IMG/VR virus record: IMGVR_UViG_3300033156_000439
Span: 1-64,000 of that record
Length of the DNA: 64,000 bases
Origin: a virus
Reading direction: 5' to 3' (one strand)
Below the pieces are notes generated by a model. The model saw nothing but the letters and a program-made list of their open reading frames with translations. It was not told the origin of the DNA and made no database searches. Made by a program: the position numbers and the translations under genes. Positions 8,183 to 52,100 of this stretch are shown here, piece after piece (the first letter of the stretch is position 1; each line of letters opens with the position of its first letter).

Positions 8183-9212
8183 TTAGAATCCTATCCTTTC
8201 GATCACAGAAGGCTCTCTAAATAGTTTAGTTTGAGCAGCAATTGATTTTATTCTTCTATACGCCATTTCGCAGTAATTTTCGTTTATATCTATTATGATG
8301 GAGTTTCGCTCTAATTTTTCAGCCACAACTCCCACCGTTCCCGAACCCCCAAATGGATCAAGAACACTATCATTTGGTTTGCTTCCTACCTTAATTAGCG
8401 GGAGTATTAAGCGCTCTGGAAATACAGCAAAGTGTTCACCTTTAAACGATTGGGTCGAAACGCTCCAAACATCACCTGGATTTGCACCCAACGGATGAAG
8501 ATTCACTACCAGATAATCCCCTTCCGCATATTGATATTGAGATATTGCCATATTTTGCTCTCTATGATATCGCTTCGACTTATCAAATAAATCTGTGAGT
8601 TTAACAGATACTTTTCGCTTGCCATTGGGTCTTGGTTTGTTTATTCCTCCTCCCCCACCGTATTCAGGATGATTCATGTACTTATGTTTATTACTAACCG
8701 CTCTTAAAACTCTTTTCTTACTTGCTTCCTTGTGAGGAACTCTTACCGCATCCAAATTAAACTGGTAACCTCGATCCTTTACCAACATGAATATCGGTTC
8801 GTAACCGTGAGAAAAACCCCGTTTAAAACTATCTGGCATATGACCTTGTTTATACCAAATGACTGGACCCTTCTTCGGCATTAGCCAATCTTGTTCGTCT
8901 ATCATTTTGAGAATCAGTCTGTAATTCTGCATTGTGTCACACAAATTTATTTTGTTAGTATCGTGATTCCAGAACATCACACCTGTTTTCTTGAGGACTC
9001 TTTTCAACTCTTTTTGTAATCTCTAATAAATGAGAGATGTATTCTTCGAGAGTTGATTCCTGTCCTATTTCTTGTGTTTTCTTGGGGTGGTCATCTGGCA
9101 AATAAGAACGTAATTTCCAATAAGGTGGTGAAGTGACAATTGTATCCACGCTCTCACTCGGGAGTTCTTTTAGGACTTCCAAGGTATCTCCACAAATTAT
9201 CTTATGCCTCAT
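8183..9212 (-). pseudogene. Probable N4-cytosine DNA methyltransferase split by a single frameshift (ORFs 8955..9212 and 8183..9007)
   Basis: TSPPY in the 5' ORF; HFAVFP and DPFGGSG in the 3' ORF. Removing one T from the T5 run at 9011-9015 restores ITKELKRVLK. Confidence 0.8.
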
Positions 9213-16363: not shown

Positions 16364-16905
16364 TCAATATATTTGTTTATCGTAGGAGTTATGGAGTTTC
16401 ATACTCTTTCTCCTCAACATTAGGAGTAATCCTACTCCAAATTCCTTCAATTCTTCTAACGACTCGCTATTTTGTTTTAAGATAACTCCTTTAAAATTCC
16501 AGACTTTTGTGGTTGTCCACACTCTTCCAAATTGGAAGATAGAAACAGAGGATCCGTACTTAGAGCGATACGTGTAAAGTGTGTGTACTAACTTAGAATA
16601 GTCCTTTTTCGATAGTTTAATTAAAAAGTCTACAATATCAGGATGGCGTCTTTTTAAAGAATTAAAATGGTAATAATAGAAATCTATATCTGAAATTCCT
16701 CCAAAATAAAAACAATCGTCTGCTTGAAAAAGAAAGTAATAGGATTCTTCCTCGATATTCTTGGCGACTCGAGCTATATCGTTTATGTGTCGATCGACAG
16801 AACAAAGCTGTCCTAATTTTAAGAGAGCGAGATTTTCTCGGAATCCTGTTCCGAACTGTTAATGCCAACTACTTCTCCAGGAGTTGAGATGATTATTTCG
16901 TCCAT
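16364..16905 (-). pseudogene. Array paralog 1 (frameshifted, absent from the ORF track)
   Basis: MDEIIISTPGEVVGI.. continues after a -1 shift at T4 16833-16836 as ..NLALLKLGQL...FGRVWTTTKVWNFKGVILKQNSESLEELKEFGVGLL. Confidence 0.75.
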
Positions 16906-17399
16906 TTCTTTCCAAGAATCGTAAGCAGTCCTATTCCCATTCTCTTTAGGTCTTGGAATTCCTCCTCTTGCTGTTTAAATATAATTCCGTTGAAACACCA
17001 AAGATCAATGAAGTTCCACTCCCTCCCGAAAATTTCCTCTCGAATTGGTGGAACAGTAAGGACTTTTAATTTGGAGATCTCTTGTATGAGCTTTTGAAAC
17101 TCGTCATTCGCTATATCGAGCAGTATAATTACCGTTTGTGGATCCGGTCCGCGAGGATAGTCATTGAAATGTACAGATATGTCTTTTATCTCGCCCATAA
17201 AGTAATCGTCATTCACTCTGAATAAGAAATAATAAGGTTCCTGTTTAACAGACTCGATGATTCCCAAGATATCGCTAATGTATTTTTGGAGTGAAAGCGA
17301 AAATCCAAACTTTAGGAGTATAGCTATTTTCCCGTCTATATCTTTAGGAATTCCTAATACTTCAGCAAGAGACGAGATTGTGATTACGTTCACCACCAT
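16893..17399 (-). CDS. Array paralog 2
   Basis: Ends FNGIIFKQQEEEFQDLKRMGIGLLTIL. Confidence 0.85.
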   Translation of the reverse strand: MVVNVITISSLAEVLGIPKDIDGKIAILLKFGFSLSLQKYISDILGIIESVKQEPYYFLFRVNDDYFMGEIKDISVHFNDYPRGPDPQTVIILLDIANDEFQKLIQEISKLKVLTVPPIREEIFGREWNFIDLWCFNGIIFKQQEEEFQDLKRMGIGLLTILGKKWTK

Positions 17400-17919
17400 A
17401 GTTTGCTCATCTCCTTTTTCACCTCAAATGACTGTCTGAATAAGGTAAGTAATCCAATTCCAACACTTCTTAAGTCCTCCAACGTCTCATCTTCTTGCTT
17501 CAGAACGATCCCGTTGAAATTCCAAATCTCCATAGTTTTCCATGTTCTTCCAAAACGAGTAATAGTGGAAGATTTACATCGTGAATTGATATACATCCGA
17601 GTTAACTTATGATAATCCTCTTCTAAAGTTGAAATTAAAAAATACGAAGCTTCGGGACGGCTTGGATGATAATAATAGTCGTTGTATATATCTATCTCTT
17701 CTATTTTCCTATGACATAGTCAGCTTTACCTTTGGATTTGCCATCAAACATAACGTAATGAGGTTCACTCTTGATGAGTGGAACTAATTTACAAACCCTT
17801 TCAATATATTTTTCAAACGAAAATAAATGCCCAAATCTGACTATCGCAACATTTTGCTCGTCCTCAGGGATTCCTACTACTTCAGCGGGGGATGAAATAA
17901 TAATTTCATTCATTACCAT
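17390..17919 (-). pseudogene. Array paralog 3 (frameshifted)
   Basis: ORFs 17701..17919 and 17390..17596 join if one T is added to T4 at 17704-17707 (GKIEEID, versus GKIEEIE in the neighbour). Confidence 0.8.
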
Positions 17920-18426
17920 ATTTCACACATTTCCGGTTCAAGCACCTTTCTAAACATAGTGAGTAATCCAACTCCTATGTTTTTTAAATCTTCCGGTGTT
18001 TCATTTGTATGTTTCAGAATTACTCCATTAAAATTCCAGATTTCCATCGTCTTCCACGATCTCCCGAAACGAGGAATGGTAGAAGCTTTATATAGGGAAT
18101 GATTATACATCCAATACAGCTTACTGAAATCCTTCTCTGAGATAGACAACAAAAGACCTGCTCCTTTAGTAGAATAATTTCGAAAAAGATTATAAGTTTC
18201 AATTTCCTCTATTTTTCCCATGATATAGTCGATCTTTTTCTTGAGCTTGACTTCGAAGACAATATAGTAGGTATCGTTTTCGATAAAAGACACTAATTCT
18301 ATTATTGACTTGATATATTTTTTTTGGAAACTTGAACAAATGCCCGAATCTTACGATTGCAGTATTTTCTTCATTTTTAGAAATCCCCACTACTTCAGCA
18401 GGAGTAGCTATCAGAAGCTCCTTCAT
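17913..18426 (-). pseudogene. Array paralog 4 (frameshifted)
   Basis: ORFs 18199..18426 and 17913..18293 join if T8 at 18318-18325 is T7 (FPKKYIKSIIELVSFIE). Confidence 0.8.
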
Positions 18427-18429
18427 TTC

Positions 18430-18681
18430 CTACGGCTCAATTCGTTCCGGCTCTCCCCATTCTGTTGCTGAAAATCCTTTCTCGCATTTTAATCGTTTCA
18501 AAATAACCGTCATCATGTCTAAAAGTTGTGTTTCGCTTAGACAAGTGAATTCTCGTCCAATGGTAAATTGAATACAGTGTCCGTATTTCCGTCCTCCCAC
18601 GAAGGCTGTTAAGAGTAAGTCTTTACCGCCTCTGAGATCTTTCTCATCAATTGATTCGTATATCCTTATATTCTTGCTCAT
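18430..18681 (-). CDS. Hypothetical protein (not an array paralog)
   Basis: 83 aa ORF with GAGGG RBS. Confidence 0.65.
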   Translation of the reverse strand: MSKNIRIYESIDEKDLRGGKDLLLTAFVGGRKYGHCIQFTIGREFTCLSETQLLDMMTVILKRLKCEKGFSATEWGEPERIEP

Positions 18682-18736
18682 CTTTCCCTCTTATCTTAAT
18701 CTCATTGCCATAGGAGTATTCGAGTGTAAGACCACC

Positions 18737-18845
18737 TTAAAATCTTGCATGATTCGCATATATTTCGCTTCTATGCAAATTTTTCTTCGACCTTAATATT
18801 TTCTATGTGCTGACTTCAAAATTTTGTTATATCACATTTATGTTG
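18737..18845. repeat. Dispersed imperfect palindromic repeat, copy D
   Basis: aaaatcttgcatgattcgcatatatttcgc...gcaaatttt...aaaattttgttata matches the reverse complement of copy A. Confidence 0.6.
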
Positions 18846-18853
18846 ATCTGACA

Positions 18854-19333
18854 TCACATAAGGTAATCATAGTCTGCTGGAGAGAGAAGACTCAATACAC
18901 CAACGCCTGTTTCGATGAGTTCCTCTTTCTTTTCGCTATCAGAAACCAAAATTACTCCTACAGTGAGAGGACTAATGCGCATTTCTCCTTTCATTCCTCC
19001 TAAATAATAATTGGTAAGACAGGACAGATAAACGTGCAATTTGTAATCATAAGAGGCTACGAACTCAATCTCTTTGTTTACATGAACACGTATTTCTTGC
19101 AGATTAAGGGAAACTATTTCTTTCTCCAAATTGAGAAGCAAGAGGATGTTCTCATTCCTTATGCTAAATCTTGAAGGAAAGGACTTAGTTTTTGGAGAGA
19201 GACGCAAAGTATAGATTTTAGCTAAGAACTTCTCTGAGCGAGGAAGAGTAAGTCTATTTAAAATTATCAATTTAGTACTATCTTTCTCGAAGAAGAATTT
19301 GAGAGAATCTGAAACGAAAGGTATTAGCTTCAT
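18854..19333 (-). CDS. Array paralog 5
   Basis: MKLIPF start; ends VGVILVSDSEKKEELIETGVGVLSLLSP. Confidence 0.85.
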   Translation of the reverse strand: MKLIPFVSDSLKFFFEKDSTKLIILNRLTLPRSEKFLAKIYTLRLSPKTKSFPSRFSIRNENILLLLNLEKEIVSLNLQEIRVHVNKEIEFVASYDYKLHVYLSCLTNYYLGGMKGEMRISPLTVGVILVSDSEKKEELIETGVGVLSLLSPADYDYLM

Positions 19334-19840
19334 TTACATATACTTTTGAAGAATTTCGTCAGGTGAATAAACGCTCAACATTCCGGTACCAACTTCGATG
19401 ACCTCTTCTTCATTTTCATCTTCATCGTAAAAGACGACCATACCTGTTAGAGGAGGACTAACATGCAATTCCCCATTTCCCGCCTTATATAATTTATTAT
19501 TATTATTATTATTAGTTATATTTATTATATTATTATATATTTTATTATTATACGTACTGTGTAAGACAAACTTCATTCTTTTTTGGGCACATATCTTGAA
19601 TATAGGAATAGAGACAATTGTGTAGTCTTTATTAAGAATCAACATGATCTTCTTATCTTCAATACAAAACGTTAAAGGGAGAGAGACATTGTTGATAGTC
19701 AACTTTCTTCTATAATAATAAACTTTTCCTAAAAATCTAAAAGAATAGGAAAGATAAGTTTTGTCGATAATCTCCAGTGAAGGACTCTCTCTTGCAAAGA
19801 AGAACCTGAGTGATCTCGAAAAGAATGGTATTAATCTCAT
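19334..19840 (-). CDS. Array paralog 6 (with Asn-rich tract)
   Basis: MRLIPF start; ends TGMVVF...EEEVIEVGTGMLSVYSP. Confidence 0.85.
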   Translation of the reverse strand: MRLIPFFSRSLRFFFARESPSLEIIDKTYLSYSFRFLGKVYYYRRKLTINNVSLPLTFCIEDKKIMLILNKDYTIVSIPIFKICAQKRMKFVLHSTYNNKIYNNIINITNNNNNNKLYKAGNGELHVSPPLTGMVVFYDEDENEEEVIEVGTGMLSVYSPDEILQKYM

Positions 19841-20317
19841 TTATTTGTTCTCCATTACAAACTCGTATGCCTTTCGTCTTATCTCTCCTTTTGATAGTAA
19901 ACAAAGATAAGCTACTCCTATCTCCTTCAGTTCTCCAGAGTTAAGCCCCTCCTCTGAAATAATGAAGACTCCCGTGATATCCAAGGCTATTGCAGCACGA
20001 TAGATAGGAAAATCAAAGAGTTCTTTAAAATCTGCAAGCTTCTTTCCATACGTTTCCAAAGTCATATATAAGTAATCACGTCTGGAAGTCGAGTATTTCA
20101 ATAAATCTAAATGACAAACTCTGAATAAGCACAATTTCTTTCTGAATCGAATTAGAAAGTATATATTTTTATGTTTATCTGAAATTATGCACTTTGCTTT
20201 TCTTACAAGAATCGAAGGATATTCTGGAAGAAGCGGATTGGTCTCAATCCAGAACGTAATACTTTCGTTTTCTACTTCTATCTTTACTGTGTCCGAAAAG
20301 AAGGGTATTAGTTCCAT
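19841..20317 (-). CDS. Array paralog 7
   Basis: MELIPF start; TGVFII...ELKEIGVAYLCLL. Confidence 0.85.
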   Translation of the reverse strand: MELIPFFSDTVKIEVENESITFWIETNPLLPEYPSILVRKAKCIISDKHKNIYFLIRFRKKLCLFRVCHLDLLKYSTSRRDYLYMTLETYGKKLADFKELFDFPIYRAAIALDITGVFIISEEGLNSGELKEIGVAYLCLLSKGEIRRKAYEFVMENK

Positions 20318-20329
20318 CTTTCTCCAGAT

Positions 20330-20848
20330 CTATTCATCTTTTCCTGAAAGAGTCAAGTATGAAACTGCTAATTCATACACTTCTCTTTCATTCTTTATCT
20401 CACTACTCGAATAGACCAATATCAATCCTTTTAGAGGATAAGTTTGTGTGAAGTCATAGAGGTACGGATATTTCCAATTTTCAAACGGGGAAAGGGTTAG
20501 TATTAAATAACGAGTGATATCAACGTAGCTTGGAGGAAAATTGTTATGCGCAGAAGTCGAATTAGGATTGACAACATAATAAACGTTCTCTGGAAATCCT
20601 TTTAGTGATGATGAATATTCTGCATTTACAACACTTCTAAATTCAAAGCTATGGAGATGAAATGGCACATATCTTCCTTTCAAAATGAAGATACACGCAG
20701 CTCGTTTGTCTTTATCGATTAAACTAATTGGCAGTTCAGGATCGGACTGATCCAATTCAAACTTAAATTGAAGACGCTGGGATGAAAAATCGAGGGATAT
20801 ATCGGTAGTATTCTCTTTCAATACGCCATTAATTTTATAGGCTTCCAT
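20330..20848 (-). CDS. Array paralog 8
   Basis: KGLILV...EVYELAVSYLTL. Confidence 0.8.
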   Translation of the reverse strand: MEAYKINGVLKENTTDISLDFSSQRLQFKFELDQSDPELPISLIDKDKRAACIFILKGRYVPFHLHSFEFRSVVNAEYSSSLKGFPENVYYVVNPNSTSAHNNFPPSYVDITRYLILTLSPFENWKYPYLYDFTQTYPLKGLILVYSSSEIKNEREVYELAVSYLTLSGKDE

Positions 20849-20852
20849 TGTA

Positions 20853-21305
20853 TTACCTCACAATGGTTAAATAGGCTATTCCTAAGTTGATCAGATCCTC
20901 TTCAATCTCTTCTTCACAACTCAAGACTATTCCTTCGAATCCCCATAGCGAGAAAAGTCCTTTGATTTCAAGATCTTTATAGTTTAGAGGGGATCTGATC
21001 ACTAATTCTTCTATCAATCTACTATACTCTTCAAATTGTTTCTTTTGGAGTGGTGAAAATTCGATCCAGATGCTATACGGAAAGTGTGCAATTCCATTAT
21101 GTTTGAAGCGTATAGAAGTTATTTTTCCTATTAATACTTTTTCGTTTGATAATGTAAATATTAGATAAGAGGGGACGGGTTGAGAAAGCATGTCTCTTAA
21201 TTGTCTAAGGAAAGCTCTTGACACACTCCAATTTATCGAGAACGTTTGTTTTGAATCATCCTTTCTCACTAAGACTCTAAATTCTGAAATTCGTAGAATA
21301 TTCAT
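20853..21305 (-). CDS. Array paralog 9
   Basis: WGFEGIVL...EDLINLGIAYLTIV. Confidence 0.85.
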   Translation of the reverse strand: MNILRISEFRVLVRKDDSKQTFSINWSVSRAFLRQLRDMLSQPVPSYLIFTLSNEKVLIGKITSIRFKHNGIAHFPYSIWIEFSPLQKKQFEEYSRLIEELVIRSPLNYKDLEIKGLFSLWGFEGIVLSCEEEIEEDLINLGIAYLTIVR

Positions 21306-21808
21306 ATTAAGACTCCTCCATCAAGAAATAGATAAGCTGATCCGATTTCTTTTATCTCGTTAGGATTTGCTTTTCTGTGAGACTTTAAAACCAATCCACA
21401 TACGTGCCAAAACTGTTGCTTATTAAGAATGTTCTCCATTTCCGTATAGTCTATGACGTCTAACATAGAACACTTTAGGTTTATTAAGTAATACTCTTTT
21501 GATGATACTCTTGTCCATACATCTTCAAGACGGCACAAATAGAAACTGTGTGTAGAAGGTACCGCGAAGGGATGTATTAAAGAAAATAGAAAATAATGAG
21601 GGTATTTCTTGTTATTGAGATCACTACTTATATCTAAGAGAGTTTCAAATTCACTCTTAGAGAGAATTGGTACATCAAAAGAAATTTCTTGTTCCCAAAA
21701 CTTTCCTGTTTCTACTAAAGCACTCCAGCCTTTCTTTGTTCGAAACTCGAAGATTACTTCTATTTTCCCTTTTTCTTTCTCTTTTTCTTTCTTAAAAATG
21801 TTAAACAT
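21302..21808 (-). CDS. Array paralog 10
   Basis: WHVCGLVLK...NEIKEIGSAYLFL. Confidence 0.8.
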   Translation of the reverse strand: MFNIFKKEKEKEKGKIEVIFEFRTKKGWSALVETGKFWEQEISFDVPILSKSEFETLLDISSDLNNKKYPHYFLFSLIHPFAVPSTHSFYLCRLEDVWTRVSSKEYYLINLKCSMLDVIDYTEMENILNKQQFWHVCGLVLKSHRKANPNEIKEIGSAYLFLDGGVLI

Positions 21809-21820
21809 ACTAATTGAGAG

Positions 21821-22432
21821 TTATTCAAAATTTTCTTTGAGTCTTTTAAGCACAATTTGTTTTCCTAATCTTCGAGCATACACATAGAGTTCTGAAGTCT
21901 TTACTTTCTCATCTTGCAATCCCTCTTTTATACACTCTAAGCCTCCGCAATACTGGGGTTTATCGAGGCAATCAATTAAAGTCTTTTCTCGATTAGTAAT
22001 CCATATTCTCGTTTCGTTTATGAAGCCACTCTGTAAGCCAAACATTTCATTTGCATGAACAATCCAAAAATCTAATCCGAGTATCTTGAGCCTCCTACTT
22101 CTCTCCGTAGTTTGAATGAATACTGTATTCGGGATTTGACTGGTTAGACCCAAATAGCTCAGAGCGCTCCAATAAGCTATCGCATAAGGCTGAACAATCG
22201 AAGACGCTAAAATGTATTCATGTTCAGTATACTTCCCTTTCTCTGCACCCAAAGGAATTATCATGTACTTACCTCTATAAATTCGTTCTATCCATCCTGC
22301 TTTCTCAAGCTCTTGAAGGAACCTCACTATTTTCTTTCTGTTTCTCGACTCATCAAGTTCGACTGCATCTTCAATCGAAAAGACGCTTTTGTTACTTCTG
22401 ACTAATTCATCTAATAATTTAATTCTTTTCAT
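21821..22432 (-). CDS. AbiEi-family (type IV TA antitoxin) transcriptional regulator
   Basis: N-terminal wHTH (L.K.GWIERIYRGKY), YWSALSYLGLT.Q.P, T..EKTLIDCLD.P.YCGG. Confidence 0.85.
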   Translation of the reverse strand: MKRIKLLDELVRSNKSVFSIEDAVELDESRNRKKIVRFLQELEKAGWIERIYRGKYMIIPLGAEKGKYTEHEYILASSIVQPYAIAYWSALSYLGLTSQIPNTVFIQTTERSRRLKILGLDFWIVHANEMFGLQSGFINETRIWITNREKTLIDCLDKPQYCGGLECIKEGLQDEKVKTSELYVYARRLGKQIVLKRLKENFE

Positions 22433-22453
22433 TTAAAACTAAATAGGTGTATC

Positions 22454-22837
22454 CTAAACATTTAGCGTCTTCGGGGTCAGTCCCTTGGAGAATAATTCCG
22501 TGTACTGTTTCCCATAGTATTCCTTCCCATAGACCAAGGAGTTTTTTACTGCCTCGTATTCGTTTTGATTTAAAATAGTTCCTTCCAAGTCTGCTATGAG
22601 TAATGTTTTCTTCCTTCTTACTACGCGAATATCATCCAATTGACAAATAAATAAGTTAATATCTTCTCTTTTTATGTTAAATACGAGATAGTAAATAAAT
22701 TTTTTAAGTTTTCTTTTTATCTTCAAGAGTAAATCTCTTTCTGCTTGGCTTATTACGATAGTTATTGCCACTCCCAGAATTTTATTTCTGTTTAAGCCTA
22801 TTTCTCCATCAAATCTTTCGAACTCAAATTCGATCAT
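22454..22837 (-). CDS. Array paralog 11, C-terminally truncated or divergent
   Basis: YYLVF...FICQLDDI resembles paralog 10 (HYFLF...YLCRLEDV) but the terminal family motif is missing. Confidence 0.6.
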   Translation of the reverse strand: MIEFEFERFDGEIGLNRNKILGVAITIVISQAERDLLLKIKRKLKKFIYYLVFNIKREDINLFICQLDDIRVVRRKKTLLIADLEGTILNQNEYEAVKNSLVYGKEYYGKQYTELFSKGLTPKTLNV

Positions 22838-23427
22838 ATCCTGTCATCCTCATTTAAGAGTAAATAAGCATACCCCAAATTTTTAATGTCTTCACGACTC
22901 TCTTCCTCCGTCTTAAGTAGTAATCCTTTCATGTCCCACGCTTCAACTCTCCATTCTCTTCTGTGATTCCGAGAAGTTTCGGCTATACCAAACGCTGACT
23001 GTGACATCGTAGTAGTCATCTCTTCCATGTAATTGCAACCTGAAAAGTAAATCGAACGCATTGATTTAGTCAGGTCCTCATGTTCTTTTTCTTCCATCTC
23101 AAGTGTTAACTCGATGATTGCTAATGGATCCAACACGGAGTATCTCGGTTGGGATAATATATTCCCCTTTAATAATTTTCCGACGAAACAATTTTCTTTA
23201 AAAAGAAACACTAAATAGTAATTATCGATGCCAAACGTAGTTTCATTTATAACTTCCCTTGTATTGTGTAGAAATTTACTGTTGTACTTGTGAATAAAAA
23301 ATGATATATTAAGATAACTCGTATCCTCTTTTATGTATGATTTTAGTAACGCTCTCCATGAGGATATGAATAAAGAGTTCATTTTACAAGCCTTTCCCCA
23401 GCAATGTGTATCAATTGCCTCATTCAT
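22834..23427 (-). CDS. Array paralog 12
   Basis: WDMKGLLLKTEEESREDIKNLGYAYLLL. Confidence 0.85.
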   Translation of the reverse strand: MNEAIDTHCWGKACKMNSLFISSWRALLKSYIKEDTSYLNISFFIHKYNSKFLHNTREVINETTFGIDNYYLVFLFKENCFVGKLLKGNILSQPRYSVLDPLAIIELTLEMEEKEHEDLTKSMRSIYFSGCNYMEEMTTTMSQSAFGIAETSRNHRREWRVEAWDMKGLLLKTEEESREDIKNLGYAYLLLNEDDRI

Positions 23428-23966
23428 TTCAGATAAGTAATATAACCCACCATGAGTCTCTTAATGTCTTCTAACGTTTCATTCTCCTTTTTCTTGATGA
23501 CTATGCCCATGAATGAGAACATGTTTGATCGCATCCATCCTTTCTGAATTCTTCGTGTGATTGAATCCCACCACTTTCCTATTCCAGTAACTTCAGAGGA
23601 AAAGAAATACGAAGAGGCAGTAAATTTAAACATTGCAAGTAACCTCATAAATTTGTCTCGGTCACAAGACGCGAGGAACAATCTTATGATAGCATCGTCC
23701 TCGTCAGGATATACTTTACACATTTGGAGAGAAGAACTTAGTATTCGAAAGAGCAAGATATGATTTTTAAATCCGTCTGAGATTTCAAGACATAAATACG
23801 CATCTGCTGAAGATTTACTGAGATCTTTAATTTTTTGTATTATTTCTGGATCAAAAGTCGGAAATGTTAATTCAACATAATTCGGAATACGCTTATCAAC
23901 GAGGAATACTGCCGTGGCTGTCTTTATGAGAATTATATCATTATTTATTGGCTCAATCGTTTTCAT
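23424..23966 (-). CDS. Array paralog 13
   Basis: FMGIVIKKKENETLEDIKRLMVGYITYL; close to paralog 14. Confidence 0.85.
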   Translation of the reverse strand: MKTIEPINNDIILIKTATAVFLVDKRIPNYVELTFPTFDPEIIQKIKDLSKSSADAYLCLEISDGFKNHILLFRILSSSLQMCKVYPDEDDAIIRLFLASCDRDKFMRLLAMFKFTASSYFFSSEVTGIGKWWDSITRRIQKGWMRSNMFSFMGIVIKKKENETLEDIKRLMVGYITYLK

Positions 23967-24496
23967 AAGCAGGTAAGATATCCCAATCCTAACCTTCTTA
24001 AGTCCTCTAAAGTTTCACTTTGTTTTTTTCTAATGACTACTGCTTTAAAAGGAAAGATGCTTGATCTTACCCATCCTTTTTTAATCTTATACGATATTAA
24101 TTCCCACCATTTGCCAGTGGTAGTCACTGGTGAAAATAAAGGACTTGAGATAGAAAAGGGGAAACTTTTAATCAATTTGGTGAAATCGTCATCATCAAGC
24201 GGACTAAGATAAAATCTGACTATGGAATCGTCTGTATTGGAATTTATTTCTAAGGGTTGTAGAGTAAAATCTTCTATTTTAAAGAGAAAGTTTAATTCTT
24301 TACCTCTCGGATTCTGAAATGCAGAACTCAAATACAAATCTGAGAAGTTTGAGACATTAAGTAAATTTCGTAATTGGTAAATAGCATTTGGATCATCGCA
24401 CGGAAAACTCAGATCTATATAGTCCCTAAAGTGTTCATTGACAAGGAAGAGTGCAACAGAGTTACTCATCTGAATTACGTCCATTTCCTTCGACAC
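23963..24496 (-). CDS. Array paralog 14
   Basis: FKAVVIRKKQSETLEDLRRLGLGYLTCL. Confidence 0.85.
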   Translation of the reverse strand: MSKEMDVIQMSNSVALFLVNEHFRDYIDLSFPCDDPNAIYQLRNLLNVSNFSDLYLSSAFQNPRGKELNFLFKIEDFTLQPLEINSNTDDSIVRFYLSPLDDDDFTKLIKSFPFSISSPLFSPVTTTGKWWELISYKIKKGWVRSSIFPFKAVVIRKKQSETLEDLRRLGLGYLTCL

Positions 24497-24504
24497 AGTT
24501 ATGT

Positions 24505-24942
24505 TTACAATAAAGTGAGGTATGCCGTCCCTATGTTTTTGATCTCGTTAGTCTTTTCTCCTTTAATTTCAAATGCTACTCCTTTGAATTCACTTGTGGC
24601 AAATGTCCACTCCTTACTGTCGAAGGGGTTATGGTGACACGATAAAGATTTTACCTCTTCACTGCTAAGAGTTATTTTGAATGATAAACTCAATGGTGGA
24701 GTAATAAAGCGAGAATAAAACGGATCATATTGAAAATCGGTCTCCACTCCGTTGCGAATCTTCCCAATGTATATTTTCTTCTTCAACTTAAAAACCAGAT
24801 ATTTATTTTGAGATTCTTTTTTCATGTACTCTTTGAGTTCCTCAAAGTATTTGCTTCATCCCCAAAAATATATCGTGATCAAACCCTCCCGTTTAATTCG
24901 ATTGATCCTCAGATGTGCTTTATATCCAGATACACGGATCAT
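24505..24942 (-). pseudogene. Array paralog 15 with an in-frame TGA at codon 29
   Basis: MIRVSGYK...IYFWG*SKYFEELKEYMKK... continues in frame into ORF 24505..24825; TGA at 24856-24858. Confidence 0.7.
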
Positions 24943-24957
24943 TATTCTTCTCTCCCT

Positions 24958-25412
24958 CTACGTTATAGAACTCTCGATATCCTCAGGTGAAAGGACTGCC
25001 AATATTCCCCTGCTCACCTCAATCGCTTCTGCCTCTTCGTTTTCACTGTAAAATGTTAATGTGCCAGTAATCACATCAGAAATTCTAATTTCTCCGTCGA
25101 ACGAGAATCCACACCGGTCTAAGAGGGATTGTTGACGACTTCTTGCTATGAACATTCTCCATAGACGCCATCGTATACAATCTATTGGGAGAGCAATTAT
25201 CTTGCGTTTCGTTTTCAGTATAGCCAAAGCGGGTTCAGGATTGAATTGAAAATGGAGTGGTAGTTTTTGCTTTTCTCTTCGTTTAATAATTCGTAAATTT
25301 GAGATAGAAATTTTTCGGTTATTAAACGATGATAGTCTACAAGATAGAGTTTATCATCATCTTTGAATCTTAACTCCAAATATTCGGTGATAAAAGGGAC
25401 TATCTTTATCAT
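24958..25412 (-). pseudogene. Array paralog 16 (frameshifted)
   Basis: MIKIVPF start; adding one T to T5 at 25264-25268 gives KLPLHF (versus SLPLTF in paralog 6) and joins 24958..25227. Confidence 0.75.
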
Positions 25413-26644
25413 GCACTTCTTCCCTTTCCTCCTTCGTAAAAGACTGTTCTTCCAAACGGAAGTTTCTGATGTCTATCTCTAAGACTGTCCGGAACCAGCC
25501 AAATCACTGGAAAATTTGGTGCACTGTCTGGAGACGTGCCATACGTATCTGTAACGTATATCAAACCCCTGAGCTCTGGATATTTTTCAATCTCTTTAAA
25601 GACTGGTCTAAAGTCCGTGCCTCCTCCTCCCTTCCACTCAATCTCATCAAGTTCTTCGGGACTGTGTATCCAGTGTTTTACCTGAACTTTAGCATCACAT
25701 TGAAGCAGTAATACGTTCAGGTCTCCCTTGAAATATGAGAACAAGAACTGCATTCCTGCCTTGAATTCAGAAAGTAGTTCAGTATCTATTGAGCCACTTG
25801 TATCAATGGCTACACATATCTGAAGTCTGTTCCTTCCTTTGATTTGGGGATATAGCAACGGCGGATACCGCCTTTTGTGTAATCTTTTCCAATTCCGTTT
25901 ACTATAACTCCTTTCAAGTACAAAAGAAGATATAATTTCACTGATTGGAAGAGGAGGATGAAGTATGTTTAACACTTCTCTTTTTAAAGAGGCTGGTAAC
26001 GTACCCTGCATGAAAGAACGTAAAAGGGACTGTCTTATCGTCCGTCCCAATGCGTCATTCTTGCTGTGTTTCCATATTTTGTGACCTTGAAGACGCTTTT
26101 TCCCTTCAGTATTTTTGCCCTTACTATTTTCTTCCCCTTGTCTACTTTTAGGTTCTGATTGTCCTCCACTTGCAGACTGCCCACACTGGGATTGTTCTCC
26201 AATACCTTGAAAATTCTTCATGAGTTCTCTATACACTTGCTCAAACGTCTTGCCTGTATATTTTTCATCGAATAGAAAAGAGGACGGTAAATGTCCAAAC
26301 TCCTCTTTAATTATAGCGTTGGTAACATAATCCGCTGCCATATTTGCTATTTCCCATTCTACGTCATTGGTTGCGATCTTTAGTCTTGAATCCCATACAT
26401 GAGATAGAAGTATATGAAGATACTCATGGGCTAAGTCGAATGTGAGATCACTTGGAGAAATTCTATCAAGATAATCTTCGTTCAAGTAGAAGGTCTTTCC
26501 ATCAGTGGCTGCTACTTCAATTGGCACTCCTCTAAATTCCCTACCTATCTCCACTGGTATGGTAAGCACTCCTGACCAAAATGGCTTCTTCTGTAAGAAC
26601 ATGAATTTTGCTCGTCTTATTTTCTTGAGATAATTTTCATTCAT
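25409..26644 (-). CDS. DUF2201-type metallopeptidase-VWA domain protein
   Basis: AATDG, HEYLH (HExxH), MIDAS DTSGS, GGGGTDF, TD.YG. Confidence 0.9.
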   Translation of the reverse strand: MNENYLKKIRRAKFMFLQKKPFWSGVLTIPVEIGREFRGVPIEVAATDGKTFYLNEDYLDRISPSDLTFDLAHEYLHILLSHVWDSRLKIATNDVEWEIANMAADYVTNAIIKEEFGHLPSSFLFDEKYTGKTFEQVYRELMKNFQGIGEQSQCGQSASGGQSEPKSRQGEENSKGKNTEGKKRLQGHKIWKHSKNDALGRTIRQSLLRSFMQGTLPASLKREVLNILHPPLPISEIISSFVLERSYSKRNWKRLHKRRYPPLLYPQIKGRNRLQICVAIDTSGSIDTELLSEFKAGMQFLFSYFKGDLNVLLLQCDAKVQVKHWIHSPEELDEIEWKGGGGTDFRPVFKEIEKYPELRGLIYVTDTYGTSPDSAPNFPVIWLVPDSLRDRHQKLPFGRTVFYEGGKGRSA

Positions 26645-27055: not shown

Positions 27056-27262
27056 CTACCTCGTTTTAGGATGGGCATTTTGTTCCTCCTGAGTTTCTTC
27101 TATGACTTCTTCCTCCCTCTTTCCGTCCATGTCCATAAGCAGACTTCCTATGATTATAAGCATCATGCCAACAGTAAGCGGGAATTCTGTATCAAAGTAC
27201 TGAATTGATAGAACTACTCCCCAAGCCAGTAAGGCTCTACCGATGCACTGAAAAAATGTCAT
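27056..27262 (-). CDS. Small two-TM membrane protein
   Basis: Two hydrophobic segments. Confidence 0.55.
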   Translation of the reverse strand: MTFFQCIGRALLAWGVVLSIQYFDTEFPLTVGMMLIIIGSLLMDMDGKREEEVIEETQEEQNAHPKTR

Positions 27263-28326
27263 TCTCCACTCAGCAATGGCAGTATCTCTTTACCTATGTT
27301 CTTCATCAGTTCCCTAAAGTTCTCATCACCGAGCATCTTTGAAAACATCTCTGAGGGCATTGAGTTCTTGTAATCTACAAGGAACGCTGCTGCCCCCTCA
27401 ACGAATCCACCATATTCGGGATCCTTTCCCTTCTCCCAAATCGCTCTTACATATTTAAAGTACGCCTTTGAGTAGCTCATTTGCTTCTTCGAATTCTTCT
27501 CTCTACTTATCACGGAAAGAAGAGTTTGTATTGTGTAGGTTAGGACGTCAAATTCACTCGGTATATCACTAACGTCTCCTTTCAATATCTTTTGTATGTC
27601 TGGAAGTTTATCTCTTAAATCTGTGAAGGCTAAGAACTTGGCTGCCACTGAACCCCCGATCGAACCAGAGAGATCTTCGATGCTTGACAGTCCTTGCTCT
27701 AAGAGAAGAGATACTCGTTCCCATCCTCTTCCACAAGTTACTTTCTCTCCTCTGTGCTCTGGCAGTATATACAGGTCTTCGGGATGAGCACTCAAGTAGG
27801 CTATAATCTCTGGAGCGATGTGATTTTTCAATGCCCACGCTTTCCATACTTGTATGTCAGGTTCTACGTAGATCTCATGAAGACGTGCTTCGAGTGGTAT
27901 CTCAAGATCCCCAACGACTGCTCCATGTTCTCTCTTGTTTCCCGTTCCACATGGGACTATTCCATCTGGTAGTGGTGTATCTCCGATCATTCTGTCGTAG
28001 AATACACGATACAGTGCTTTCTGCATTTCATTGGAAGCGTGATTCAACTCATCGAACAATAGGAATCCTTGAGCATCATCTGGATACTTTGCCCACTCTG
28101 GTGGAAGTTGAAGAACCACTCCGGAACTTGGATCTGGAACTGTCCAGCCTTCCAAATCAGGGGGTTCCAAGGTTAGCAACGATTTAGAAACGCAAAGCAC
28201 TCCCATCTCTTGAGCAGTTTGTCGTATGATCGAAGACTTCCCCACTCCAGTTGGACCCCAAAGAATAAAGGGAATCCTCTTTTCGTATAATTTTTTAATT
28301 CTTTCTTTCGTTTCCCGTAGGTTCAT
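27259..28326 (-). CDS. MoxR-like AAA+ ATPase
   Basis: GPTGVGKS, LLFDE, GN, R finger; paired with the VWA gene. Confidence 0.9.
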   Translation of the reverse strand: MNLRETKERIKKLYEKRIPFILWGPTGVGKSSIIRQTAQEMGVLCVSKSLLTLEPPDLEGWTVPDPSSGVVLQLPPEWAKYPDDAQGFLLFDELNHASNEMQKALYRVFYDRMIGDTPLPDGIVPCGTGNKREHGAVVGDLEIPLEARLHEIYVEPDIQVWKAWALKNHIAPEIIAYLSAHPEDLYILPEHRGEKVTCGRGWERVSLLLEQGLSSIEDLSGSIGGSVAAKFLAFTDLRDKLPDIQKILKGDVSDIPSEFDVLTYTIQTLLSVISREKNSKKQMSYSKAYFKYVRAIWEKGKDPEYGGFVEGAAAFLVDYKNSMPSEMFSKMLGDENFRELMKNIGKEILPLLSGE

Positions 28327-42156: not shown

Positions 42157-43011
42157 ATGGGTGAATTAGCTGATAGGTTAAAAGAATACGTCGCTAAGGT
42201 GCAGACCCACGAACTCAGTGCGTCTGATGATATACGACGACTAACGCAGAAAGCCTATTATAACGCTGTCATGGCTGGAGCTAAACGAAGGGAATTCATG
42301 AGGAAGATATTACCTGTTGTCAAAACAAGTTCACATAGAGTGAGAGTATTCACATCTAATGCGAATGGATATGCTTCAAAAGGAGCTTATAAGGGTGAAC
42401 CTCCTATTTTTCATCCTAAATACACAAGCGTCGATGTGGTCACCGAAAAAGCTTGGACTTTACCTCTCGCTCCAAAAGAATTGGTTGAGGACGCAGAATT
42501 TGGCTTAATAGAGAATGAGGTTTCATTGGCTGGTATGCGATTGGAGAACACTTTAAACCAGGATGCAATTTCTACTTTAATAGATAGTGCTGATCATTCT
42601 GTAACATGTAGCATAGCATCTTCAGTAACGGCAATAAAAGACGCTTGTATTTATGTTGCAAACTCTCAATTTACTCCAACCCATTTGATTGCCAATCCAT
42701 ATTTCTTCTTTTCTGCTATGGCAACTGCACAGTCACCTTTAATGTATAATGAGGAACAGGGTGGTCCTCTTGATATGAAATTCCTTGCTGTGACTTCAAA
42801 TGGCAATAAAAATTGGAGATGGGAAAACGCAGGAGATGTCGGAGCAGTAGTGTTAGATGCTGAAATGGCAGCACTGATCCTCATGAAGGAGGATATAACA
42901 GTGAAAAAATATTCTGATCCTCTCAATGATTTACGTGGTGCAATAGTAGAAATGAAATACAAAGTTGTAGTAAGAAAACCCAAAGCTATTTGTATAATTA
43001 AACATGATTAG
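42157..43011 (+). CDS. HK97-fold capsid protein, copy 1
   Basis: ELVEDAEFGLIE...G.RLENTLN; C-terminal DITVKKYSDPLNDLR; paralog of 59835..60821. Confidence 0.8.
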   Translation: MGELADRLKEYVAKVQTHELSASDDIRRLTQKAYYNAVMAGAKRREFMRKILPVVKTSSHRVRVFTSNANGYASKGAYKGEPPIFHPKYTSVDVVTEKAWTLPLAPKELVEDAEFGLIENEVSLAGMRLENTLNQDAISTLIDSADHSVTCSIASSVTAIKDACIYVANSQFTPTHLIANPYFFFSAMATAQSPLMYNEEQGGPLDMKFLAVTSNGNKNWRWENAGDVGAVVLDAEMAALILMKEDITVKKYSDPLNDLRGAIVEMKYKVVVRKPKAICIIKHD

Positions 43012-44701: not shown

Positions 44702-47116
44702 ATGAGCCTACGAGTAACATTTCTCGGAGTGAGTGCAGAAGCAAAGGGACACTCTTGCATATTGATTGAGTCCCCTAAAGCGAAAGTTCTTTTAGAACCC
44801 ACCCAGCGGGTTAAGGATGTTGATGCTGTTATAATTACGGATATAGACAAAGATGAATATAGCGAATGGAAATATTATGCAGACCAAGGAGTTCCAATAT
44901 ATTCAGTAGCAGCAATAAAGAGATGGGCAGAAGATGATGAGCTTCGTGAGCACATTCAAGTGATAAGCAACAAGTTCTCAATTAAGGGTCTCCACATGAA
45001 TTGGCTAAAAGCTAATGTCGCTCCTCACGAACCAGCAGGCGGAGTTAGAATCCCAAGTTACGATGTAGATATAGTGCCTGAACTTCCACCTTATATTCCT
45101 CAAGCTTTAATAAAGGCATTCGGACTGCCACCGTCTCACATCATTGTTGGTATTGGCTCTTATAAGAAGTTTGATCACAAAATATCATTTGAGGATTTTC
45201 TTCTTCAACTTGAGAAGACTCGGAGTGGCAAGGAAAAAGGTCTTTTATCTATTACTCTTACAAATTTCAGGAAAGATTTAAAGGAACATAAAAGTGAAGT
45301 CCTTAGAAGACTGAAAGAACGATGGGATATACCCGTCTTTTGGGCGGAGAAGGACATGATACTTGAGTTCTCTAAGAGTGGACAGGTTGAACGAATAAAT
45401 GGAACTTCTGGTGAATTAGAAAAGCTTTACCTTAAAGAATTCCTTTCCAAAGGAGTGGATTATGACATTAAACATGTTAAAACAAGGTGGAAAGAATGCA
45501 TTGCAGATTTGCGATATTTGGCTAACAACGCCGTGCCTCGCTTGAAAGCAGGAAAGAAGTGGGGTGAGTGGACTCTTGATGCGTGCTATAAATATTTTGC
45601 TGCTTTGATAGATGCTCTTCGCAGTGTGTATTTTACACTTGTTCCTCCCACTCAACCTGAGCTATACAAAATAGAGCATCCTGATAAAGATCCTAAGGAA
45701 GCACTTAAGACTTCTTTCTGGCAGACATATTTAAAGGCTAAGAAATACATGAAGTCCAAACCTCCCAAGGATGAGGAAGAATTAAAAGAGTGGAATAAGA
45801 AGCGAGCAAAAATAATAAGTGCGTCTGAAGAAACAAAGAACCTTAAAGTTGGATACCTTTCTAAGGCTAAACCATATTTACGATTCTTCCTTCCTACTAT
45901 TCATGAAGATATTGCGAGTGCTGGATGGGATGAAAAGAAGCTCCTTATTGATGTTAAAGCTGATGGTCTTAGAATTACTCTTTGGAAGTCAGGCGGTAAA
46001 GGGTACGTGTTTGTAGATCCAGAAGAACTTAAGCACAAGTCTCCATTAATAAACAAATATATTCCTCAGATAGTGAGAGAGATCGAAGAACACTTCCCTG
46101 ATAACACAGCTCTTGATGGGGAACTTTATGCAGCAAAAGGCAATGAGGCTTTACATAGAACTGTCATAAATGGAATTATAAATACTAAGCTTCCTCCCGA
46201 AAGATTCATACCTTATGCGTACGCATTTATATTTGATGTCCTTGTTTATAAAGGGAATGATGTTCGAGATAAATCTCTTGAAGATAGACTGAAACTGCTC
46301 CAAACTTTCAAGTCCACTTCACATATCAAAATAGAAAAAGTAAGCAAAGTTGCAATACCAAGCTATTCTGGGTACATAGTAGACGGGAATAACAAGAGTA
46401 TGATAGATAAAGCCATTCATTTGATAAAAACTTCAAAACACGGTCTCCATAAGGGATTGCAAGAGGGTGTTATGATTAAAACTTTAGATCATTTCTACGA
46501 AGTCCCTACGAATAAAGGAGCAGCTAAATGTAAGTTTTGGCACGAAGTTGACACTGTGGTGCTGGATAAGAAGTTGGTAAAAGGACAAACTGATGTATGG
46601 AATTATTATCTGGGCATTGAAATACCAGCCGGATATGCTAAGATGATGCTTGATGATACTCAGGCGTATAAACGGGTTCGATGTTTGTATAACGGTCATC
46701 TTTACAAAAAGAAAGAGTGTCAAGATTATTTAGACAGGCGAGGTGCTCGATTCTTTATGGAATACGGAAAGTCGGATAACACAAAAATTAAGTGTGATGT
46801 TGGAGACGTCCTTAGAGTGTCCTCTGAAGAAGTCCTTTATAATGCAAACGAAACTCATCCAGAATGCCCCTATTATACAGGATACATAAATAGGGCGATG
46901 GAGCCAGTGCCAGAAAGAAAGACTTCTGATAATTTAGTCGTGTTGCACCGTCTTGCTTTACTTGAACCTCAGCGGATACCCTTGGAAGTCTTAGCGAAAT
47001 GGAAAGAAAATATGCCTCCAGAGATAAAGAAGTATTGCGACTATATCAGGTCCTTATCTACTCCAAAACTAATTCAATTTTATAATGCACTAAAGAAGGT
47101 TCAAAATGAAGAGTGA
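44702..47116 (+). CDS. ATP-dependent DNA ligase with degenerate metallo-beta-lactamase-like N-terminal domain
   Basis: KADG motif I, LDGEL, FDVL, EGVMIK, KCK, OB domain. N-terminus VTFLG...SCILIE...AVIITDIDKDE lacks HxHxDH. Confidence 0.85.
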   Translation: MSLRVTFLGVSAEAKGHSCILIESPKAKVLLEPTQRVKDVDAVIITDIDKDEYSEWKYYADQGVPIYSVAAIKRWAEDDELREHIQVISNKFSIKGLHMNWLKANVAPHEPAGGVRIPSYDVDIVPELPPYIPQALIKAFGLPPSHIIVGIGSYKKFDHKISFEDFLLQLEKTRSGKEKGLLSITLTNFRKDLKEHKSEVLRRLKERWDIPVFWAEKDMILEFSKSGQVERINGTSGELEKLYLKEFLSKGVDYDIKHVKTRWKECIADLRYLANNAVPRLKAGKKWGEWTLDACYKYFAALIDALRSVYFTLVPPTQPELYKIEHPDKDPKEALKTSFWQTYLKAKKYMKSKPPKDEEELKEWNKKRAKIISASEETKNLKVGYLSKAKPYLRFFLPTIHEDIASAGWDEKKLLIDVKADGLRITLWKSGGKGYVFVDPEELKHKSPLINKYIPQIVREIEEHFPDNTALDGELYAAKGNEALHRTVINGIINTKLPPERFIPYAYAFIFDVLVYKGNDVRDKSLEDRLKLLQTFKSTSHIKIEKVSKVAIPSYSGYIVDGNNKSMIDKAIHLIKTSKHGLHKGLQEGVMIKTLDHFYEVPTNKGAAKCKFWHEVDTVVLDKKLVKGQTDVWNYYLGIEIPAGYAKMMLDDTQAYKRVRCLYNGHLYKKKECQDYLDRRGARFFMEYGKSDNTKIKCDVGDVLRVSSEEVLYNANETHPECPYYTGYINRAMEPVPERKTSDNLVVLHRLALLEPQRIPLEVLAKWKENMPPEIKKYCDYIRSLSTPKLIQFYNALKKVQNEE

Positions 47117-49182: not shown

Positions 49183-52100
49183 ATGGGTTGGCTTTCTGGT
49201 TATGCTTATCGGAAAAAAGTAACCATTTCCGGTTCGAGTGGGGCGGGAGAGAATTACCAAGTTAAGTTATCGATTGGTAGCTCATCTGGTGGGGACTTCC
49301 ACTTAGAAGGACATTGTGAAGACTTTCCTAACGATATTCGATTTACAGATGATGATGGTACTACTCTTTTGGACTACTGGATTGAAGATTCATCGCAGGA
49401 TCCAATTACTGTTTGGATAAAAGTTAAAGATAGTTTAGATAACAATGTGGATATTTACATATATTACGGTAATCCTTCGGCGACCTCAGGAAGCGATGGC
49501 GATGCAACTTTTGAGTTTTTTGATGATTTTGAAGGAACGAGTTTGGATTCAGACAAATGGACCACGAGACAAGGTTCAATAGGGGTTGACGGTAATGGTA
49601 ATTTGCTTTTAGAAGGGACTTCAGGTACAAGAGGAATCATTGATGGTAATACTTCATTTAGTATTGGTAGCGCTCTTCGTGTGAAAGCGAAATGTTCTCA
49701 AACGGATGCTCGTTTTAATCATTTTTGTAGCATGAGAAAAAGTGGCGACTGGAATTACAGGGGAGCAGATACTTACGTGGGCAGCTCGAACGAGGACATT
49801 TATTTTCTAACAGCAAATGAAGGCAATACTTCCTCAACCAATTGGACGCCTAATACTCCAACAGATTGGCACATTTATGAGTCCACTTGGAGGAGTGGAG
49901 AATCAAAGGTCTTTCAGGATGATAATCTTAAAGCAACTCTCACCTCAAACATTCCAACCGTAGATCAAGTAGTAGTTTTTTATGAAGGGAACGTTGTAAA
50001 TGGTAATATTCATGTTGACTGGGTTTTCGTCCGCAAATACGTCTCCCCAGAACCCTCATTTAGTAGTGTAGGAAGTGAGGAGAAGGGATATTTTACTTGT
50101 TCTGATATGGTCTCTCTGTTAGATGAGAGTTTTGGTGGTGGACCAATAACACGAAGCTGCACTGATATTCTCGATTCTATCTCTTCTTCATCTTGTTTCA
50201 AATTTGCCACATGGCTTCCAGGTTTCGCTTATAGGAAGCGATTAACGATTTCAGGTTCAAGTGGCGCTGGTGAAGGCTATCAAATTAAATTAAAGATTGG
50301 TTCCTCATCAGGTGGAGATTTTCACCTGAATGGTCATTGTGATAATTTCCCTAATGATATTCGTTTCACGAAAGATGATGGTCTTTCCCCTTTAAGCTAC
50401 TGGATTGAGGATCCAACTCAAGATCCAATTACTGTTTGGGTAAAAATCGAAGACGATTTGAGTAACGACGTGGACGTGTACTGCTATTACGGAAGTTCAC
50501 TCGCAGATTCTTTGAGTAATGGCGATGCAACTTTTGAGTTTTTTGATGATTTCAGTGAGACAAGTGTTGTGAATTATTTTGCTTCCAATGGTATGTACCG
50601 TCCCTTTATGTCAGCCTCAGCAACTTATCATAACGGTAAAACTTTTATAGTTTGGCAGGGTACAAATGGAGATCCTTATGCGATAGAGTATAATCATACA
50701 TCTCATACCTTTAGTTCACAATACAAAGTGGGAGATAGTCCTTTAGTGAACGATGGACACGGGGGTCCCGCTTTACTCCGTGACGGTTCTGGCTATTTGC
50801 ACGTTTTTTATGGTAGTAGAGGAGGTGGCTGTTCCGGAGAGAATTGTTATGTTCAATATGCTAAATCAACAAATCCGGATGACATTACTTCATGGGTAGA
50901 CAAAGGGCATATCGGTCCTTCACGATGCACTTATCCGAGACCGGTACTTGTTGGTTCTGATATTTATCTCTTTCTGTTCAATAATAGATACGATAAATGT
51001 GTAATGCTTTACATTAAGTCCAGTGATGGTGGCGAAACTTGGAGTTCATCGAAAGATATAATAGATTTTGGGGAGTCTTATAGTATATACTACCGAAATG
51101 TAGAGTTGGAAGGAGATTCAAAAATTCATATAGTTTGGCGCATTTACGATCATAATGCTGGAAAACGTTTACATGTGTATCATGCTTATTTGAATTTATC
51201 TGATTTGCACATGTATAGTATGGATGGTACTGATTTGGGAGAAGTAATAAATAAGAGTGAAGCTGATGAACATTGTAAAGTTTTTGATTCTGGAGATAAT
51301 CAAACTCAAATGATGAAAGTTCATTTGGACAGTGATGGTACTCCTTATATTATTTTTAGTCATGATGATAATGGGTGGAAATTTAAATTTACGAAATGGA
51401 ATGGTTCCTCATGGGACTCTCCCATTACAATAACAACCACTGACTACTTTATGAATAATCTCGATTTTATTGTACATTCTTCATCAAACATCGAACTTTA
51501 TTTAACAGCAAGTGGTTCTTCTTCTGGTTTGGGTGGAGATATAGAAAAATGGTCTTGGGATGGTTCATCTTGGACCAAGATTGAAACAATACTCAGCGAA
51601 GATGATACAGACTTCCCTCCTAATGATCCTTATATTGTTCAAAATTTTAATCCAGAACTGAAAGTTGTATTTTCAGAAAACAAATATGACTATTCTACTC
51701 CGTTAAAAGTATTCGCGTATGGTGACAGTGGATTTGTACAGAGTGTTGAATATAACATCGACTGGGATGGTAAATGGCAGTCGGAAAAGCAGTCATACTA
51801 TGACATCATCGAGGAAAATTCTAATCCTGTTTTGAGATTAAAAAGCGTAGGAAGCGGATGGAGTGATGCAATTTATAGCAAAAGTAGTTTTTCTGATCTT
51901 AAGGGATTTAGGTACAAAGTTAAATTTACAACAACCGATCCCTGTCTCTATACAGGTTTGGCTAAAGATGTTCCTCTGAGCGAGTGGATATTTCTTTTTG
52001 ACTGTGATAACGGATTAAGGTACCTATCAACATCTGGCTCTTCTACTACTATTTGGAATTCTGTTGTTGCGAATAAATGGTATGAAGTAATAGCAATAAA

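Follow-up and report, generated by a model that had tools for sequence, protein, structure and literature searches.

Sixteen diverged paralogs form a tandem array

We analysed a stretch of 64,000 nucleotides (the window), which corresponds to bases 1-64000 of the virus record IMGVR_UViG_3300033156_000439 in IMG/VR; the complete genome, referred to here as G000, is 81,823 bp long with direct terminal repeats. On its minus strand, at 16364-25412, 16 paralogous genes (c01-c16) lie head to tail and take up about 11% of the complete genome (9 of 82 kb). A tandem array of about 16 head-to-tail paralogs had been proposed in a sequence-only reading of this DNA, and it was borne out by BLASTP, by multiple alignment and by a profile whose matches are confined to the array. 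In the all-against-all BLASTP comparison, c13 matched c14 at 1e-42 and c03 matched c04 at 2e-34, and the subfamilies were bridged by chains of matches of 1e-5 to 1e-9. The closest pair within the genome, c03 and c04, shares 51% protein identity, and the other pairs share 40% or less. When a 39-member profile was searched against the whole 81,823-bp genome, 20 matches were obtained, all within 16403-25406.

The C-terminal motif by which the family had first been recognised is present in all 16 copies when judged by profile and alignment, the common end being W..W.F.G-hhh-(4-8)-E-[ED]-h-K..G.[GA][YL]L.h, but the regular expression proposed for it matched only 3 of 16 copies in its literal form and 7 of 16 when relaxed. 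Neither form matched anywhere outside the array in six frames of the genome, nor in 50 shuffles. The likeness is not limited to this motif: full-length alignment of the proteins is possible, with an N-terminal M..I..[IF] strand and a central YL.F / G-K-I hairpin preceding the C-terminal end. Four of the proposed subfamilies (c01-c04, c05/c06/c07/c16, c10/c11 and c13/c14) were recovered by both BLAST and a tree, whereas c09, c12 and c15 joined only weakly.

For comparison we used the relatives G001 (about 95% DNA identity), G003, G002 (a fragment) and L016; the genomes of two relatives are 80,678 and 71,922 bp long. The expectation that every copy is a gene of 150-200 amino acids (aa) held only in part, as 10 of the 16 copies are intact and six are broken, five by frameshifts and one by an in-frame TGA, and two genes that do not belong to the family, an 83-aa open reading frame (ORF) and an AbiEi-like gene, lie within the block. 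The members of the block, all on the minus strand, are as follows.

16364-16905, minus: c01, frameshifted, with the N-terminal 28 aa in one frame and the rest in another; intact relative P0003 at 84% identity
16893-17399, minus: c02, intact, 168 aa
17390-17919, minus: c03, frameshifted at a four-A run near 17703-17710; contigs of the public runs X1, X2 and X7 have one more base at 17703
17913-18426, minus: c04, frameshifted at an eight-A run at 18318-18325; seven A in G001 and in the X1, X2 and X7 contigs
18430-18681, minus: unrelated 83-aa gene in the block; in relatives it lies at the far end of the arrays
18854-19333, minus: c05, intact, 159 aa; second structure model
19334-19840, minus: c06, intact, 168 aa
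19841-20317, minus: c07, intact, 158 aa; missing in G001
20330-20848, minus: c08, intact, 172 aa
20853-21305, minus: c09, intact, 150 aa; first structure model
21302-21808, minus: c10, intact, 168 aa
21821-22432, minus: AbiEi-like gene (winged helix-turn-helix antitoxin family; PF13338, 5.2e-7), nested in the array
22419-22837, minus: c11, frameshifted, with the C-terminal motif in another frame and overlapping the AbiEi start; intact in G001, L016 and P0022
22834-23427, minus: c12, intact, 197 aa
23424-23966, minus: c13, intact, 180 aa
23963-24496, minus: c14, intact, 177 aa
24505-24942, minus: c15, in-frame TGA after about 31 codons, Trp in relative P0016; a 106-aa ORF (24505-24825) is left
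24958-25412, minus: c16, frameshifted, its start overlapping the stop codon of the next gene upstream, which encodes a von Willebrand factor A (VWA)-like protein, by 4 nt; intact relative P0025; the X1 and X2 contigs have an extra base at 25276

The array is suggested by its gene junctions to be one transcription unit, because these mostly overlap by 4 nt or leave no gap. A scan for sigma-70 promoters and terminators was uninformative, with 36 promoter-like sites against 39.4 expected and 4 terminator-like sites against 5.6 expected; a virus of archaea would in any case not use promoters of this type. Within c06, an AAT/ATT-rich segment at 19485-19548 codes for a run of Asn; G000 and G001 differ here by 9 bases, and the segment was flagged as a skipped repeat in read mapping.

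The family has no recognisable relatives outside a small set of clusters

A family profile searched against 1,835,955,588 protein representatives retrieved 33 clusters (50% identity level, E<=0.001), all of 70-196 aa, and each of the 33 matches a copy in the window at 23.5-96% identity. Of the more distant clusters, ten were inspected individually: none carries a name, and almost all come from short metagenomic contigs. The sequence-only reading recognised no known family, and profile searches agreed with it. Neither Pfam, queried with 10 and then with 50 members, nor NCBIfam, queried with 50, contained a family matched by more than two members, and none of these matches came near the cut-off. 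PHROGs gave one match (0.0045, for one of 10 proteins), PADLOC two stray matches among 16 proteins, and a profile search of PDB sequences a best E-value of 0.4.

No description of the array family was found in the literature on Ekchuahviridae, Nakonvirales, Kukulkanvirus and tandem paralogs of archaeal viruses. The main text of PMC9894754 makes no mention of paralog, tandem, MoxR, von Willebrand or AbiE; the supplementary annotation tables of that paper may list the ORFs. A DNA mimic or a uniformly acidic protein was considered as well and rejected, the isoelectric points ranging from 5.0 to 9.3.

Two subfamilies share a predicted barrel fold

Structures of two members, c09 and c05, were predicted with AlphaFold2 using family alignments. 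The c09 model reached a pLDDT of 87.6 and a pTM of 0.82, and the model of c05, which represents the most distant subfamily, a pLDDT of 92.8 and a pTM of 0.88. The order of elements is identical in the two models: the chain opens with a long N-terminal hairpin and one helix, continues with three strands and a second helix, and closes with the last strand and a C-terminal helix. A shared fold, as the sequence-only reading had implied, is supported by this agreement between members of two subfamilies, and the common fold is predicted to be a six-strand beta-barrel with helices, capped by the C-terminal helix, in a single domain of about 150 aa.

The same reading had taken the motif for a constant docking end on one scaffold. 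That idea was not borne out, since in both models the motif forms part of the fold, namely the last barrel strand and the C-terminal capping helix. This helix is the least variable element of the family. Of 50 members, 48 carry an acidic residue (Glu or Asp) at position 137 in c09 numbering, 45 share the Gly of G125 and 48 share the Leu of L146. The models leave room for a shared partner, which the conserved helix may contact.

The best structural neighbours of the c09 and c05 models overlap, with scores below noise. In the ESM Atlas the first matches were unnamed clusters at 0.90-0.91 with a structure TM below 0.5, and a search restricted to named entries returned nothing usable for c05. Among the nearest known six-strand closed beta-barrels are the helicase 1B barrel (Upf1/Sen1/SETX), the FAD-binding barrel of ferredoxin reductase and the N-terminal barrel of HerA.

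The subfamilies are old and their members turn over

In a maximum-likelihood tree of 63 rows, the copies of no genome grouped together (15 rows with 15 label changes for G000). Each copy in the window paired with orthologs of other viruses, including records in which the VWA-like protein is only 56-60% identical. Because there are no genome-specific clades and orthologs occur across viruses, the subfamilies, on the evidence of the tree, arose before these viruses diverged, and the differences among relatives are mostly losses and replacements, with no recent amplification. Copy number varies: there are 16 copies in G000, about 10 in G001 and 7 in G003 (two of them split), and the fragment G002 has at least 5.

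The most informative differences are those to the closest relatives. G001 lacks c16 and c15 as well as c07, and carries a 520-bp insert. In addition, its c04 is fused to c01, with c03, c02 and most of c01 gone; the chimera is c04-like up to the stretch coding W-N-F-x-G, which is the W-x-F-x-G part of the motif, and c01-like after it. This arrangement is the product of an unequal homologous crossover inside the conserved motif, which can, in that capacity, act as a DNA substrate for editing the repertoire. L016, whose MoxR-like and VWA-like proteins are 97% and 93% identical to those of G000, has two members of a subfamily missing from G000, lacks the AbiEi-like gene, c10, c09 and c08, and has a c13 ortholog of only 62% identity. 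The repertoire is thus edited by deletions, unequal crossover, subfamily replacement and point inactivation.

Poxvirus-type gene accordions arise by recent amplification of near-identical copies. The array had been called accordion-like, and the description fits insofar as the copies are in tandem and their number varies among near relatives and other related genomes; it fails in that the closest pair here is at 51% and every copy groups with orthologs of other viruses in place of genome-specific clades.

Joints in contigs (418-, 593- and 4007-base skips) hint at more deletion variants but were not counted, because their flanks are short or their depth is low. The insert in G001 (L007 16575-17160), which lies between c05 and the 83-aa gene and is not in the window, contains two ORFs of 109 and 75 aa with many Cys pairs, whose products may bind zinc.

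The ratio of nonsynonymous to synonymous substitution rates (dN/dS) between G000 and G001 was 0.12-0.33 for eight array genes, with c09 identical in the two genomes, against 0.02-0.12 for core genes. Among 24 non-array genes, 21 had a value of 0.12 or less, the highest being p159 (0.26), AbiEi (0.25) and p86 (0.12); PolB was covered over two-thirds of its length. The intact copies are under purifying but relaxed selection.

Six copies are broken in this genome

Intact versions of c01, c04, c11, c15 and c16 were found among the database matches, and in-frame lengths at the c03, c04, c11 and c16 sites occur in contigs of other public runs. General sequencing error was examined as the cause of the frameshifts and rejected: of 82 ORFs of at least 100 aa in G001 that match G000, two (c11 and a DNA methylase) are frame-split in G000, a comparison that covers only genes shared with G001. 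The methylase, an N6/N4 DNA methylase at 8183-9212 on the minus strand (PF01555, 3.3e-38), is frame-split near 9000-9020, whereas G001 has it as one unbroken ORF of 378 aa; no other gene outside the array was found broken in this comparison. In a wide count, which judges c01, c03, c15 and c16 by relatives other than G001, 6 of 16 array genes are broken against 1 of about 80 others (p 5.5e-5).

The array lies beside MoxR-like and VWA-like genes

Two neighbouring genes upstream of the array, on the same strand, bear on its interpretation.

25409-26644, minus: VWA-like protein with a putative zincin N-domain (DUF2201_N and DUF2201, Pfam 9e-17 and 2.7e-21), directly upstream of the array
27259-28326, minus: MoxR-like AAA+ ATPase, with weak AAA, AAA_5 and Sigma54_activat matches; 75-97% identical in relatives

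A neighbourhood with MoxR and VWA genes had been noted from the sequence and proved to be conserved. Five virus records or contigs were examined, and in each the VWA-like gene is immediately followed by the array; the order MoxR, small gene, VWA, array is kept, with synteny in four relatives, down to 56-60% VWA identity. As read by eye, the VWA protein has HExxH in its DUF2201_N putative metallopeptidase half and DxSxS in its VWA half, and both are found in G001. The ATPase matches only generic AAA models (1e-4 to 4e-3), and its MoxR label is taken from the sequence-only reading. That reading also placed a ClpP beside the array, which was not confirmed; there is none among 30 neighbouring or large ORFs scanned. 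Protease-like matches among these 30 are confined to three proteins: the VWA protein, through its zincin half, a papain-like protein and, in the other arm of the genome, a prohead protease.

The known AbiE type IV toxin-antitoxin system pairs the antitoxin AbiEi with AbiEii, a nucleotidyltransferase toxin, whereas the AbiEi-like gene of the array is an orphan: the AbiEii model PF08843 matched nothing at E<=1 across all 81.8 kb of the genome but did match control genomes. The gene occurs in G000 and G001 and was not found in L016, G002 or G003. Because it is present in G001 but not in these three, its distribution indicates a recent insertion into the array.

A host-interaction repertoire is the preferred explanation

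We are highly confident of the descriptive part of our interpretation, namely that this is an old orphan family of one virus lineage, selected yet individually dispensable. As an overall explanation, an old, turnover-prone host-interaction repertoire accounts best for the observations, and we put it forward tentatively, as slightly short of an even call. Its functional part is more tentative still: on analogy with other viral families, the proteins could possibly be binders or inhibitors of variable host targets, for example defence components. Each subfamily would have its own host target, and copies would turn over because a particular host population makes single members dispensable or even selects against them. 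The helix at the C-terminus, with its nearly constant acidic residue, would either simply stabilise the fold or bind a single partner shared by all members.

This explanation is favoured because the pattern is that of viral host-interaction families. Multigene families in variable regions are known from African swine fever virus (multigene families MGF110, MGF360 and MGF505) and from rudiviruses and lipothrixviruses, whose paralogs include the AcrID1-type anti-CRISPR family. Like these, the array consists of clustered, diverged small paralogs in a non-structural region that varies among isolates through deletion and recombination, with a presumed role in host interaction; and the birth-and-death pattern is present here, with losses, pseudogenes and recombinant copies between isolates. 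Unlike them, it has no sequence relation and no detectable fold relation to those families, belongs to a tailed virus of apparent ekchuahvirus type, is fixed downstream of MoxR and VWA genes and has a function that is only predicted. The nested orphan AbiEi-like gene also speaks for the host-interaction explanation, as does the broken methylase, which is itself a host-interaction type of gene.

Several results weigh against it. Any detectable similarity of a member to a known anti-defence, inhibitor or immunity family is missing, and fold searches of the PDB (by Foldseek and by an aligner against representatives) and of BFVD returned nothing above noise. The dN/dS values are well below 1, with no gene-wide sign of an arms race. 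When G001 is the common reference for array and other genes alike, 1 of 9 array genes and 1 of about 73-80 others are broken, a difference that is not significant (p 0.19). Finally, the fixed place beside the MoxR and VWA genes fits an adaptor or client role at least as well.

Such a role is the alternative that survives best, although we regard it as unlikely. The proteins would be clients or interchangeable adaptors of a MoxR AAA+/VWA-zincin machine, with the acid of the helix going to the metal-ion-dependent adhesion site (MIDAS) of the VWA domain and the barrel choosing the substrate for remodelling or cleavage. The MIDAS of VWA domains generally binds an acidic ligand residue, and in the MoxR AAA+/VWA pairs RavA-ViaA, CbbQ-CbbO and NorQ-NorD the VWA protein bridges the ATPase to its client. 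The position directly after the VWA gene in five of five records, down to 56% VWA identity, argues for this role, as do the 4-nt overlap of c16 with the VWA stop, the low variability of the C-terminal helix with its nearly constant Glu/Asp and the retention of DxSxS and HExxH in the VWA protein. Yet the synteny may reflect a shared early operon alone, the helix may serve folding only, and 6 of 16 copies are broken while the MoxR and VWA genes stay. The locus would resemble the known pairs in that genes for an AAA+ ATPase and for a VWA-like protein with a putative MIDAS motif share one operon, and it differs from them in the zincin-like N-domain of the VWA protein and in the variable array of up to 16 small paralogs downstream; we know of no MoxR/VWA pair with such a client set. 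A more elaborate form, in which the array would be a cassette library of substrate receptors whose acid sits in the VWA metal site and whose barrels capture host defence proteins for unfolding or cutting, is rather improbable; if true, it would amount to a programmable, virus-encoded targeted-degradation system in archaea.

The frameshifts themselves could be a switch, either by slippage at A runs that turns genes on and off, as in contingency loci and phase variation, or by programmed frameshifting. We consider this improbable, judging it on contigs and not on raw reads. In-frame versions of four broken copies do occur in related populations, and c04 (A8 here, but A7 both in G001 and in the contigs from three runs) and c03 (A4 here, one base more elsewhere) are plain homopolymer changes. 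These are the only two, however: the sites in c01, c11 and c16 are not simple changes in homopolymer length, c15 has a nonsense change, runs of A4 or A5 are too short for efficient slippage, and no common slippery motif is present.

A structural or replication-accessory role for the virus, for example as virion-associated barrel proteins, is still less probable. The weak fold neighbours include phage tail and baseplate barrel domains, but at scores below the noise level of the tool; the array lies in the replication/enzyme arm, with the structural genes on the opposite strand; and core functions would not be expected to range between 5 and 16 copies or to survive with six of them broken. That the array is a non-functional remnant of selfish or junk duplicates in neutral decay, as its six broken copies and the frequent deletions among relatives might suggest, is very improbable given the dN/dS of 0.12-0.33 of the intact copies, the orthologous subfamilies kept across viruses whose VWA proteins are 56-60% identical, and the confident models with a conserved fold.

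The interest of the locus lies in its combination of properties. More than a tenth of a complete genome is given to one family that has no relatives beyond a few related viruses and no convincing structural neighbour, and this family is old and selected, yet pruned and reshuffled between near-identical genomes. A pattern that is ancient but reshuffled usually marks the virus-host interface. To our knowledge, almost no host-interaction genes have been characterised in viruses of methane-oxidising or other uncultured archaea, and the confident models, clear subfamilies and fixed MoxR/VWA neighbour offer a concrete entry point to such genes.

The virus and its setting

G000 is the genome of a tailed virus. 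Its minus-strand arm carries a family B DNA polymerase, an anaerobic ribonucleotide reductase and RecA-like and DHH-like genes, and its plus-strand arm carries terminase, portal and capsid genes. Two capsid-like proteins, encoded at 42157-43011 and 59835-60821, share 26% identity (E 5e-14), and one of them has a Phage_capsid_4 match. The main text of PMC9894754 describes Ekchuahviridae, head-tailed viruses of the anaerobic methanotrophic archaea ANME-1, with genomes of about 80.6 and 71.8 kb and two divergent HK97 capsid genes; it gives thyX as an Ekchuahviridae gene and calls the ThyX proteins a distant clade. PF02511 gave 0 matches at E<=0.001 in G000, a negative in which a distant ThyX could have been missed by the Pfam model. 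G000 fits the Ekchuahviridae type as described there, in that the arm layout and the two capsid genes agree, while the thyX result counts against it.

In the 'phages' collection there was no match to the array DNA and none to the c13 protein, and PolB led only to relatives below 60% identity. No locus was found for P0014 and P0028 (viral contigs) or P0032 (metagenome contigs). A MoxR scan of genome contigs gave a single 2-kb contig of a metagenome-assembled genome labelled 'bacterium', which was not used for a host claim. The public runs that carry parts of the stretch are labelled as vent, sediment or seawater metagenomes.

Two further observations concern the structural arm and large genes elsewhere in the window. 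A 681-aa ORF at 47106-49151 has HINT/intein-type matches and is preceded in the structural arm by an 804-aa ORF at 44702-47116 with an ATP-dependent DNA ligase domain. The 1485-aa ORF at 49183-53640 has diverged more between G000 and G001 than any other large gene, and its N-terminal segments are internally repeated, each matching two places.

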